From: a virus
Taxonomy: Duplodnaviria; Heunggongvirae; Uroviricota; Caudoviricetes
DNA length: 5,976 bases
IMG/VR virus record: IMGVR_UViG_2690316115_000013
Coordinates: 1 to 5,976 of that record
Direction: 5' to 3' (one strand)
Shown: positions 1 through 3,000 of the stretch, piece after piece
Layout: every line of letters starts with the position of its first letter
Numbering within the stretch: the stretch's first letter is position 1
Position numbers: made by a program

Positions 1-3000
1 CTCTCGTCTGGGGAATATCTCCCCGGCAGCCTTCAGGGAAAAATATCATCAGATAGCTGCTTAAAAAAAGAACAAATGGTAGTGTCCGCTATTGTCAGTA
101 CACCTCAGTTATCGAGGTCGCGACGGCGGGAATCTGGTGGTTCAGCAATAATTGTGATGCGAAGTCGTGATTTAGTGAAAATGTCTAATCTGAGTTGCCG
201 GATGATTTGCTGTACGTCTTTTCGGTATTTCTGGCCTTTATCGCTGATGTAGTACTGGCTTCCCCGTCTTCGCCAGTAGGTATTCACCGTCGGCGGCCAG
301 GGAAGCACAAACTCATATTCATTCATGACTTAATCTTCCCCTCCTTCAGCAATATCGCCTGCGTCCTGATCACGCCTTCCAGGTGGTAAAGTCTGGCGTC
401 GTTGTTGTCGAGAATTCGGGTGCGTCGGTCGATCTCCGCGTGGCAGTCACTACAAGCCCATGCACCGATCAGGTCGTCAGGCTTCATTCCCGTTCCGCAA
501 ATTCCAGCCATCCGGTAATGTGCCAGAACTGTCGTTTCAGGATTGCCATTGCATACGCCGTAAATCCGTACCTGGCATTCTCTGCCGCGCGCTTCTTTGC
601 GTAGGTTAGCCATTAAGCAGCCTCCCCTGTTACTTTCAGCATTCCGTTATCGAGCGGCTTTCTGGTCAGCCACTGTTGACCACGCCCGGTGATTTTTGTG
701 GTGAACGAGATCTGTATTCCGTGATTTGTATTGACCGCTGTTTCTTTCACTGTGAAATAGCCGCGATCCATATATTCCTGCATTGGCACATTGCGCCGGG
801 AACCTGAAGCAATAAGGATTTTGTGATCGCGCATCCACGCAAACAGTTTGTTTGGACCAATACCAACAACCTTTGCAAAGTTTCCAATCAAAATTCCGCT
901 GGACTCGCCAACGCGATCGGCAAACTCAACTTTAGGTGCTGCGAGAGCAAGCTGTTTCTCCAGTTCAGCCTTCTGGTCTTCAAGGTCGGCCGCAAGGCGC
1001 AATGCCTCAGAAAAGGTTTGTGGTATTTTCGCGGTTGCCCCTTCAAGCTCTCGCCAACGGTCAACAAGACGAGCGGTGAATTCCGGCGACAATTGGGCGA
1101 CGACAATAATGCTGTCTCGCTTACCTTGTTCGCCTTCGAAGACGTAAGCCTCGACACTACGGCGCAGTCCTAAGTTATTGATTTTTTCGAAAACCTGCAA
1201 TGCAGGAAGTTGAATAACTCCAGATTCAGCCAGGCGCTCTATTGATATTTTTACGTTATCTGGACGACTCCCCACCAACTCAGCGATTTCAATGCTGGTC
1301 ATTTTGATGATGCTGCTATTTATCAGCTCATTCATTGTCATGTCCTCTCATATTGAAAATTCAGCAATAAAAAACCCAGCCGAAGCTGGGTTTGTTAAGT
1401 TGTCAATTGTCAGTAGCGATGCAGTGAAGGCGGCAACTCTTTGTTCTTAAGCCTTTCCCATGCCAGAAGGTTCGTCGGCCCGTCAGGCTCATAAATATCT
1501 ATATCCCGCGTGTGATTAATTAAAACGCCCCTCGCCCTCCCGATGATATACGAGAACTCATAGCCGTAGTCGTGGCATATGCCGGAATAGCCAGACTGAA
1601 TCAGTTTTAATGCGGGATACAACTCACGGAACAATGCCTGTGAGCGGTTGGCATAATCCCACAGCCATACAAGGCTGTCTGTTTCTTTTGCGGAAAGCCC
1701 GTTGGGCTTCTTCTCTTGTTTGCCAGTATTTTTCTCGCACTGGCTGAAATAGCAGTCTTCCAGTTTTTCGAACACATCCCACGCCTGATCGGTTTCTAGC
1801 ATTTTGGCGTGACGGGCTGCGCCTCGTTCTGTCCAGAGGATGAGGGAGCGAACGTTACGGGCAATTTTCACAGAGTAGTTAAAAGCTACTCTGTGCTTGA
1901 ACTCACGTAAAGTTTCACCTTCAAGTTTGAAGAAGTGTTTTTCCTCAATGAAACGACCTTTGTTTTCGTGGTGATTCTGGCGAATACGAATAGCTTCTGT
2001 GCCGTAAAGGTGCGCCAAAAGTTCGGTAGTGATAACGGGGATCTGCTTGTAAGTAATCGTGGAGAGTGTTTCAACAGAGATTTGAGTTGTCATAATGACG
2101 CCCTCGAGTGGTTTCTTAATAACTCACCACCGACGACGCCAATCGTCTGGTGGTGAACTGTGCAGGGTTGGCGTAACCGGGAAACCGACCGGCGCGGATC
2201 TCTCCGCCCCCACACAGCCCACCATAATTCAGATGTGCGCGTGCATACGACAATAAAAAACACGCTCGCGGCGTGTATCTGTCGCGGTCTCTATCCAGGA
2301 CGCCAATCCCGACGCCAGATTTTGCTGGCGCGTGAGGAATATAGCCCCGAATAAATCATCACGTCAATCACCTTGTTTTCCTCGCACGATGTCTTAGCCA
2401 CCGGATATCCCACAGGTGAGCCGTGTAATTGAAGGCTTTAACGTCAGATTCTTTTGGGATTGGCCTGGGTTTATTTCTGGAACGTTTCGTTGGAAGGTAA
2501 TTGCAGTTTTCACAGACTATATCGGTAATGCTTCGTCGCTGTCGTCTCATTCATACCTCCTGTCGGTAAATCTGACACCCTGCTCCACAGCCCAGGAAGT
2601 TGTGTACTCAATCAGGCTTGCCATACGCTTCACGCTCATCTGCGCACTGCTTTCGCGGATATTGACGTATTCACCTTCAAGACCAGGCAAAACATCAGCT
2701 TCCTGTTTTGTCGCCACGGCATGACCGCTGATTAACAAAACTTTCCACTGTTCTGGTTTTAGCCATCTGCCGCACCACTGAACCTGTCGGGAGATATCAG
2801 CGACCATCGCGTGAAATTTGGCATTTTGATCGAGATTCCGCTTGTAATCGGTGATGCGGATCGTAACGGGTTTGTCTTTATCGAGAGTTGTTGCAAGGAT
2901 GGCGTTAATGGCGAATTGTTGCTGCTGCTTACTTCGGAGGAAGATAGTCTGGTTCATTATTCCCTCTCACTGGATTTTCCCAACAAAAAAGGAGCCGAAG

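Follow-up and report, generated by a model that had tools for sequence, protein, structure and literature searches.

Directly after the ninE gene of a lambdoid prophage, a promoter, a hairpin and an intrinsic terminator follow one another at close range, which raises the question of whether this unit makes a small RNA (sRNA), serves as a leader that must be read through to express the gene beyond it, or does both. We took up this question in a 5,976-nt stretch of viral DNA (Caudoviricetes; IMG/VR record IMGVR_UViG_2690316115_000013, positions 1 to 5,976), here called the window, which is a nin region of a lambdoid prophage read leftward, that is, on the minus strand. The unit, at 2367-2255, is almost certainly an E. 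coli prophage member of the IsrK/c4-a1b1 RNA family. An earlier note on this DNA had delimited the unit correctly from promoter to terminator; it missed a C4 antisense RNA at 2229-2146 and two further pairing sites, a2 and b2, before the start of the ORF6N gene, and what it saw is the first third of a larger module.

We scanned the whole window against Rfam, with gathering scores of 50 bits for isrK, 46.7 bits for c4-a1b1 and 45 bits for C4, and three families matched at full length in each of two places. isrK (RF01394) scored 75.5 bits at 2331-2255 (E-value 2e-15) and 74.3 bits at 3916-3842 (5e-15), with model positions 1-77 of 77 covered in both; c4-a1b1 (RF03163) scored 50.5 bits at 2344-2292 and 47.4 bits, barely above threshold, at 3929-3877; and the C4 antisense RNA (RF01695) scored 66.7 bits at 2229-2146 and 75.1 bits at 3815-3731. 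The context of each family is present too: the C4 matches start 25 nt (copy 1) and 26 nt (copy 2) past the sRNA end on the same strand, as belongs to c4-a1b1, and the isrK matches lie in a prophage, upstream of an antirepressor gene and collinear with Gifsy-1. Minimum-free-energy folds, covariation and RNAalifold all give the three-helix isrK architecture, namely a 5' hairpin with the GCAAAAUC loop region, a second hairpin, and a Rho-independent terminator with a U tail. The earlier note had recognised no known phage RNA here and had proposed an Rfam search, with a match to a described regulatory RNA family counting against it; the search returned such a match, isrK and c4-a1b1 both being full-length and above threshold and copy 1 being 90% identical to the characterised IsrK.

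In the window (2292-2344 and 3877-3929), in Gifsy-1 (locus L290, 34240-34329) and in phage P1 (locus L289, 2218-2312), isrK, which belongs to no clan, and c4-a1b1, of clan CL00128, cover the same bases; the two appear to be curated families that model one element. A third candidate isrK copy, at 5554-5635 on the minus strand, was rejected: it scored 31 bits against the threshold of 50, has neither C4 nor a/b partner sites, and lies in the 3' region of hok, whose fold, together with a terminator, probably resembles the three-hairpin shape by accident.

For the Salmonella relative the question of sRNA or leader has been answered by experiment. Gifsy-1 IsrK is a 77-nt RNA with a Rho-independent terminator (Padalon-Brauch 2008, PMC2330248; Hershko-Shalev 2016, PMC4825925), part of whose transcripts read through to give a translationally silent isrK-orf45-anrP mRNA (PMC4825925); supplied in trans in Salmonella, IsrK raises anrP translation more than 100-fold, and Hfq binding and trans-activation of antirepressor translation are both experimental properties of this RNA (PMC4825925). 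The two options that the earlier note had left side by side, an sRNA of about 78 nt and a read-through-dependent leader, are thus both realised in the homologue (PMC2330248, PMC4825925). The downstream RNA STnc1160 needs the isrK promoter (PMC2330248, PMC4825925). In the Gifsy-1 record (NC_010392), the 272-nt gap between antQ (STM2617) and anrP (STM2616) gave the same three matches, isrK at 79.3 bits, c4-a1b1 at 48.1 bits and a full-length C4 at 69.0 bits (locus L290, 34131-34214, minus strand), which identifies STnc1160/orf45, as it is called in the literature, as a C4 RNA. With the already described IsrK as its identity, the unit is no novelty; this RNA family, how it folds and its double function as sRNA and leader have all been published and curated.

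The two sRNA units of the window consist of the following elements.

2338 to 2367, minus strand: promoter of module 1, sigma-70-type, 10/12, with -35 TTGACG (2367-2362), an 18-nt spacer and -10 TATATT (2343-2338)
2255 to 2331, minus strand: IsrK-family sRNA copy 1 (the c4-a1b1 element plus terminator), predicted length 77 nt, with hairpin 1 (2331-2312), hairpin 2 (2311-2296), linker and terminator
2255 to 2276, minus strand: intrinsic terminator of sRNA copy 1, stem ACACGC-CGCGA-GCGUGU (2276-2260) and U6 (2260-2255), -7.1 kcal/mol
3923 to 3952, minus strand: promoter of module 2, TTGACA, 18-nt spacer, TATATT, 11/12, the top score in the window
3842 to 3916, minus strand: IsrK-family sRNA copy 2, 75 nt, with the terminator stem at 3862-3847 followed by U7

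These parts had largely been described in the earlier note, and all of them are present: the minus-strand promoter TTGACG/18/TATATT sits right after the ninE stop codon, its -35 beginning one base past the end of the ninE open reading frame (ORF); the 5' hairpin (GCGCCAG/CAAAAU/CUGGCGU in copy 1, 2331-2312) is followed by a terminator about 75 nt on, which gives the predicted 77-nt RNA at 2331-2255; and the paralogue at 3842-3952 emerges from sequence comparison, with a terminator stem that differs in sequence and still pairs (-7.1 kcal/mol in copy 1 and -8.5 kcal/mol in copy 2). Transcription of copy 1 would start at G2331. The statement that the first 50 nt or so differ at only two positions is correct for 2351-2302, or about -20 to +30, and fails inside the RNA, where there is one difference in the first 27 nt and there are 12 in the first 50 nt, most of them within or right beside the a1 and b1 pairing sites described below. 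The promoters of modules 1 and 2 are the two highest-scoring promoter-like sites of the window, where promoter-like sites overall are not in excess (5 versus 6.6 +/- 2.3 in shuffled sequences); terminator-like sites are (18 versus 6.7 +/- 2.5).

To place the unit among its relatives, we scanned viral and species-level genome collections with the pattern GCAAAAYC, 6-7 nt, CGGGNTTRGC, which fixes loop residues only, and identified C4 in the homologues by an iterated nhmmer search seeded from the window. The pattern returned 269 distinct sequences, 151 of them with C4 at most 340 nt downstream; 140 of these 151 C4-bearing modules form at least six of the seven hairpin-1 pairs, and 105 of the 269 matches, having neither C4 nor hairpin 1, are chance occurrences inside coding sequence. 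A simple terminator-like site lies between b1 and C4 in at least 125 of the 151 modules, and about 10 of the 151 truly have no U-run; the median terminator stem ends at +72 and the median C4 starts at +101. Of 111 non-redundant modules, 93 have a correctly spaced sigma-70-type promoter of at least 8/12, compared with 1 of 105 chance controls.

The covariation that the earlier note had proposed to seek among homologues is present in all three helices. In an alignment of 88 homologous sRNAs, 98.3% of the cells pair under the three-helix structure, a share that drops to 33-40% once the partners are shifted by 1-3 columns; the percentage is biased for the terminator stems, which were selected by the detector, although the diversity of pair types there is not. 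Changes on both sides occur in 11 of the 17 pairs, including 6 of the 7 in hairpin 1, where the loop, like the 5' arm of hairpin 2, is fixed by the search pattern; none of 500 shuffles reached any of five covariation measures, and RNAalifold independently predicts the same three helices. Homology and covariation, with the conserved promoter, are the decisive evidence that the unit is no chance arrangement.

Beyond the terminator, each module continues in the same order: promoter, IsrK (hairpin 1, hairpin 2 with a1, linker with b1, terminator), C4, a2, b2 by the Shine-Dalgarno sequence, and the ORF6N/P22_AR_C antirepressor gene. The names of the sites follow the phage P1 record. The a sites, of the type UUGRC, lie in the loop of sRNA hairpin 2 and just 3' of C4, and their partner a' is in the single-stranded 3' joiner of C4; the b sites, which are variable, lie in the sRNA linker and beside the Shine-Dalgarno sequence, and their partner b' is in the loop of C4 hairpin 2. 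Their positions are as follows.

2300 to 2306, minus strand: a1 of module 1, UUGGCGU, in the loop and 3' arm of hairpin 2, complementary to a' of C4 copy 1
2285 to 2291, minus strand: b1 of module 1, GAGACCG, in the single-stranded linker, complementary to b' of C4 copy 1 with one G-U pair
2146 to 2229, minus strand: C4 copy 1 (Rfam C4), predicted mature RNA 2223-2149, GGUGGG...CACCACC
2187-2181, minus strand: b' of module 1, CGGUUUC
2174-2168, minus strand: a' of module 1, ACGCCAA
2136 to 2142, minus strand: a2 of module 1, UUGGCGU, 4 nt past the Rfam C4 match
2115-2110, minus strand: b2 of module 1, GAAACC
2105-2101, minus strand: Shine-Dalgarno sequence of module 1, GAGGG, with the start codon at 2093
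3891-3885, minus strand: a1 of module 2, UUAGCAC
3876-3870, minus strand: b1 of module 2, UCGAAAC
3731 to 3815, minus strand: C4 copy 2 (Rfam C4)
3772-3766, minus strand: b' of module 2, GUUUCGA
3759-3753, minus strand: a' of module 2, GUGCUAA
3726-3720, minus strand: a2 of module 2, UUAGCAC, in the gene 2 leader (3683 to 3726)
3695-3689, minus strand: b2 of module 2, UCGAAAC
3686-3683, minus strand: Shine-Dalgarno sequence of module 2, GAGG, with the start codon at 3677

Both C4 RNAs fold far better than shuffled sequences (z = -4.2 for copy 1 and -5.95 for copy 2), their minimum-free-energy fold is the model structure, and they have the architecture of P1 C4: a long stem closes the RNA, two hairpins lie inside it, and the 3' joiner is single-stranded. 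The complementarity of a1 to a' and of b1 to b' extends over 7 nt each in both copies, and the minus strand of the window contains UUGGCGU nowhere but at a1 and a2 of module 1, and UUAGCAC nowhere but at those of module 2. Between the copies a1 differs at three positions, a2 has the same changes and a' the complementary ones; b1, b' and b2 likewise change jointly. The gap from b2 to the Shine-Dalgarno sequence is 4 nt in module 1 and 2 nt in module 2, so that the two are adjacent and do not overlap.

The same co-variation of sites holds across homologues. For 111 non-redundant modules we took the longest contiguous Watson-Crick match between the exposed segments of C4 and the target regions either of the same module or of other modules, with the following means.

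a' with a1: own module 5.92, other modules 4.95
a' with a2: own module 5.97, other modules 5.06
b' with b1: own module 6.15, other modules 3.53
b' with b2: own module 6.72, other modules 3.97

For each of the four contacts the observed mean was reached in 0 of 2,000 permutations; the contrast for a is weakened because the search pattern dictates part of the a sites, whereas it leaves the b sites free. With 91 distinct b' loops in the 111 modules, against 11 variants of the partly pattern-fixed a1, b is, by its sequence diversity, a hypervariable determinant of specificity. Gene calling gave a downstream gene for 92 modules. Where b' and b2 match over 6 nt or more (65 of the 92), b2 ends at a median of -9 from the start codon, in or against the Shine-Dalgarno sequence; where a' and a2 do so (63 of the 92), a2 starts at a median of -47. 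The downstream proteins (n=85) belong mostly to antirepressor families and carry Bro-N (16), ORF6N (13), Rha (8), P22_AR_C (8), AntA (4), P22_AR_N (2), KilA-N (2) or ANT (1) domains; the remainder are mostly small and without a Pfam match, and may be Icd-like. In some homologous modules the first gene encodes 62-79 amino acids.

The two modules of the window differ in their a and b sequences, from which it is expected that each C4 pairs chiefly with the targets of its own module. The a' of C4 copy 1 (ACGCCAA) mismatches the a sites of copy 2 at 3 of 7 positions; the a' of C4 copy 2 (GUGCUAA) can pair with the a sites of copy 1 through three G-U wobbles, at -10.1 kcal/mol versus -14.2 kcal/mol with its own sRNA, and the b contacts of both modules have a common GUUUC/GAAAC core. 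The two modules are probably largely, not perfectly, orthogonal, and there may be one-way cross-talk from the a' of C4 copy 2 onto the a sites of copy 1.

We consider it likely that the IsrK sRNA, C4 and the antirepressor gene together constitute an antisense-RNA switch of the P1 c4 type. The steps of such a switch are modelled on P1 genetics (PMC8198154) and on the Gifsy-1 experiments. The terminator would stop most transcripts, yielding the sRNA of about 77 nt, and those that read through would be C4 precursor and antirepressor mRNA alike. C4 would pair with a2 and b2, occlude the ribosome-binding site and keep the antirepressor off; a1/b1, in cis or as free sRNA in trans, would pair with the same a'/b' segments as a2/b2 do. 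The sRNA would thus compete with a2/b2 for C4, and an excess of it would therefore turn antirepressor translation on. For this competition, or decoy, step we see the balance as even. The more general proposal, that IsrK is the terminated a1/b1 leader of c4-type modules and a built-in target mimic of its cognate C4, rather than an independent Hfq-dependent sRNA family, we advance tentatively, with doubt slightly in the lead. If it is true, the literatures on Salmonella IsrK/STnc1160/orf45 and on P1 c4, which stand separate in the papers searched, merge, as do two Rfam families, and in the window two modules of different a/b specificity would gate two paralogous ORF6N antirepressors independently.

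Several observations weigh against this account. On its own the sRNA folds no better than shuffled sequences (z = -0.6 for copy 1 and -1.5 for copy 2), and because these scores are not significant the claim of structure rests on covariation. The complementary sites are short, at 6-7 nt, and b2 of copy 1, at just 6 nt, stands 4 nt upstream of the Shine-Dalgarno sequence instead of over it. Oligomer duplex energies favour own over cross-module targets at a single contact, that of a with the sRNA (-15.5 and -14.2 kcal/mol for own, about -10 kcal/mol for cross); those of the b contacts do not separate own from cross, and the a' of C4 copy 1 scores the copy 2 leader, at a non-homologous site, at -11.0 kcal/mol versus -10.3 kcal/mol for its own. 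Whole-molecule RNAcofold gave a ddG of about 0 for all pairs of C4 with sRNA or leader, a result that would count here too were it not uninformative, because nested models cannot represent loop-loop contacts and the proven P1 pair behaves alike. In Gifsy-1, moreover, constitutive STnc1160 strengthened the IsrK-dependent growth arrest (PMC4825925), which is at odds with the simple prediction that C4 represses and IsrK titrates it, and the route of activation given by the Gifsy-1 authors is opening of the orf45 ribosome-binding site with translational coupling, not titration of processed C4 (PMC4825925).

That last point leads to the strongest competitor, in which the Gifsy-1 model applies unchanged: short IsrK would remodel the read-through mRNA from structure A to structure B and free the orf45 ribosome-binding site, translation being coupled to the antirepressor start, and the C4-like segment would act as mRNA and ORF. 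We judge this unlikely, although it comes with direct experiments in Salmonella, where IsrK G28/G31 pair with C162/C159 in the inactive structure A, as seen with the compensatory mutations G28A/C162U and G31A/C159U (PMC4825925); in P1 terms this pairing is the a1:a' contact, and G28/G31 have their counterpart in a1 of module 1 (2300-2306). Copy 1 would suit the model well, since its IsrK is 90% identical to that of Gifsy-1 and its frame is open from 2263 to 2090 (a 57-amino-acid ORF) with a stop that overlaps the ORF6N start as AUGA; for both copies, the predicted fold of the read-through leader pairs a1/b1 with a'/b' in cis and reproduces structure A. In copy 2, by contrast, the frame stops at 3727, 50 nt before a start codon that reads AUGG, and coupling is therefore impossible there; among homologous modules the frame is open through C4 to the downstream start in just 19 of 92, and orf45 is conserved in nucleotides, not in amino acids (PMC4825925). 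The region, besides, scores as a complete and strongly structured C4 RNA (z = -4.2 and, rounded, -6.0), and its a'/b' segments also covary with a2/b2 by the antirepressor ribosome-binding site, which the Gifsy-1 model leaves unused. Given the stop in copy 2 and the 19 of 92, we take competition between RNAs to be the mechanism that holds in general, to which one lineage has added coupling.

It is very unlikely that the unit is a transcriptional attenuator and nothing else, through which N- or Q-modified polymerase, or leakage, would reach the ORF6N gene and of which the short RNA would be an inert by-product. The strong promoter and terminator consensus would fit such a device, as would the location in a nin region, where antiterminator-modified transcripts would cross the unit; an inert RNA, however, needs neither a hairpin 1 in which six pairs covary and the GCAAAAYC loop context is invariant (the loop being fixed by the search pattern, the stems not) nor an a1/b1 that covaries with a downstream C4, and IsrK is active in trans in Salmonella (PMC4825925). 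A mere coincidence of promoter-like and terminator-like motifs in an ordinary 5' untranslated region has next to no probability: the count of promoter-like sites is not above that of shuffles and the sRNA fold energy is unexceptional, but coincidence is refuted by the isrK E-values of 2e-15 and 5e-15, by a paralogue of the same architecture elsewhere in the window, by 151 homologous modules in phage and bacterial contigs, and by helix covariation and promoter conservation.

Reading IsrK and C4 in this way gives known parts a different interpretation and adds no system of a new kind. Two isrK entries and C4 already figure in an Rfam-based annotation of E. coli O157 EDL933 (PMC5331693), and a paper on APSE phages reports isrK and c4 side by side, as unrelated (PMC7313666). 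The terms 'phage P1' and 'RNase P' gave no hits in a targeted search of PMC4825925, where the one analogue named in the Discussion is P4 CI/seqA; isrK is not mentioned in the enterohaemorrhagic E. coli RNase E-CLASH supplements or in the Hfq-CRAC paper; and within the literature that we searched no paper states that IsrK is c4-a1b1 or that STnc1160 is C4 RNA. The unity of IsrK and c4-a1b1, and the nature of STnc1160 as a C4 RNA, may thus have gone unappreciated so far. The antirepressor switches of Shiga-toxin phages bear on prophage induction and therefore on toxin release.

The genes that frame the two modules are the following.

2957-2547, minus strand: ninB
2550-2368, minus strand: ninE, with its stop codon at 2368-2370
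1410 to 2093, minus strand: regulated gene 1, an ORF6N + P22_AR_C antirepressor-type protein of 227 amino acids, named 'phage antirepressor Ant' in RefSeq
3012 to 3677, minus strand: regulated gene 2, an ORF6N + P22_AR_C protein of 221 amino acids

Read leftward, the order is hok/sok, a Fic/Doc toxin-antitoxin pair, a RelE/helix-turn-helix pair (on the plus strand), ORF6N gene 2, ninB, ninE, ORF6N gene 1, a KilAC antirepressor gene, ybcO and rusA; Q, in the identical E. coli locus, is found further downstream, past the window. Module 1 occupies the 274-nt gap from ninE to ORF6N gene 1, and the distance from the terminator U-run to the start of the ORF6N + P22_AR_C gene is 161 nt in copy 1 and 164 nt in copy 2. 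The two genes have in common a 111-nt core (1740-1850 and 3330-3440) that is 95% identical, in proteins that are only about 45% identical as a whole, which suggests mosaic recombination. The coding strand of this core contains GAAACCG (at 1796 and 3386), a perfect match to the b' of C4 copy 1 that is probably a coincidence.

Chromosomal prophages of several E. coli strains, FORC_069 for example, are 100% identical to the window. The 274-nt module is present in 276 phage records, the copy in the VT2-Sakai phage being 98.9% identical; a query that included ninE matched 2,228 of 5,426 E. coli genomes, a figure that overstates the spread of the module, and at least 80% of the segment of ninE plus module is found in 496 E. 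coli genomes. In the RefSeq/PGAP annotation of E. coli FORC_069 (NZ_CP023061; locus L001, 2510-2883 and 4194-4467) no RNA gene is annotated in either IsrK plus C4 intergenic region, though both pass the Rfam thresholds.

Elsewhere in the window, a hok/sok type I toxin-antitoxin locus lies at 5644-5968 on the minus strand, with a hok-like ORF at 5856-5644 (MKQQKAMLVALIV...) and a match to Rfam sok (RF01794) at 5968-5794 that scores 116.9 bits against a threshold of 59. Between it and module 2 are two toxin-antitoxin-like pairs, by their RefSeq names a Fic/Doc toxin with a 74-amino-acid upstream partner (4751-5479, minus strand) and a RelE/ParE-family toxin with a helix-turn-helix antitoxin (about 4020-4700, plus strand). 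A GC-rich hairpin of about 27 nt occurs in four copies (1370-1396, 2985-3011, 4713-4739 and 5554-5580), each at the end of a gene or cassette; its loop is of the GAAG type, and A-runs and T-runs lie on either side of it (AAAAACCCGCCGAAGCGGGTTTT). By sequence and position the four resemble intrinsic terminators that work in both directions and mark the borders of moron-like insertions.

How the modules of the window relate to known systems is clearest for Gifsy-1, with which both copies are collinear. Copy 1 and Gifsy-1 IsrK are identical at 69 of 77 positions (90%), the differences being clustered in b1, and they agree in the length of 77 nt, the three hairpins, a promoter of their own and the intrinsic terminator, in the C4-like RNA (STnc1160/orf45 in Gifsy-1) followed by an antirepressor gene, in the intergenic spacer (272 nt in Gifsy-1, 274 nt in the window) and in the a site UUGGCGU of copy 1. 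They part company at b, which is UCACCG/CGGUGA in Gifsy-1 and GAGACCG and GAAACC/CGGUUUC in copy 1, and in their neighbours: the Gifsy-1 module follows antQ, whereas those of the window follow ninE (copy 1) or lie beside a toxin-antitoxin cassette (copy 2), and the isrJ that comes after the Gifsy-1 antirepressor gene has no match there in the whole-window Rfam scan. The window also differs in having two modules in tandem, in the second of which coupling of the orf45 type is ruled out.

In P1, C4 is cut from its precursor by RNase P. Citron & Schuster (1990) reportedly described the immI regions of P1 and P7, in which c4 antisense RNA with the targets a1, b1, a2 and b2 controls icd-ant. That work on c4 is cited in PMC8198154. 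The P1 record NC_005856 annotates, in order, promoter P1c4 (formerly P51b), a1, b1, C4, a2, b2 and icd, and P1 immI is collinear with both copies of the window over about 280 nt, including promoter P1c4/P51b. The likeness extends to the order and spacing of promoter, a1, b1, C4, a2, b2 and start codon, to C4 and c4-a1b1 scores above the Rfam thresholds, to a b2 that adjoins a ribosome-binding site (in P1 that of icd), to an antirepressor as the downstream product, and to the ends of C4: the 5' end of mature C4 has the context AAUUAU|GG (AAUUAU|GGUGGG in copy 1) and the 3' end is ...CCACC, a match suggestive of RNase P-type processing in the window. P1 differs in having the small icd between b2 and ant, where in the window the antirepressor gene comes directly after b2 and the Shine-Dalgarno sequence; in a C1 operator (Oc4) in the promoter region, with none comparable identified in the window, where no operator search was made and beyond which the repressor of this prophage lies; and in being a plasmid prophage, not a lambdoid one. 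Between b1 and c4, P1 immI (locus L289, 2231-2312) contains a hairpin, ACCGCAG-N10-UUGCGGU, followed by AUUUUUG, which a simple terminator scan missed because the loop, at 10 nt, is too long; P1 too may have an IsrK-like terminated leader RNA, but at 35.1 bits the isrK score falls below the gathering score of 50, and a terminated sRNA is therefore not established for P1.

The CI RNA of phage P4, with its seqA and seqC targets, has been named as a structural analogue of IsrK (PMC4825925). Like C4, it is a processed antisense RNA flanked on both sides by complementary targets within one transcript, although it acts by premature transcription termination, not by translational repression (PMC4825925); no P4 family of Rfam matched at E <= 1 in the whole-window scan, and the likeness is one of analogy only. 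Taken together, STnc1160/orf45 as a C4 RNA, isrK and c4-a1b1 as one element and b as the hypervariable determinant of specificity give a simple framework for the coexistence of several such switches in one lysogen.

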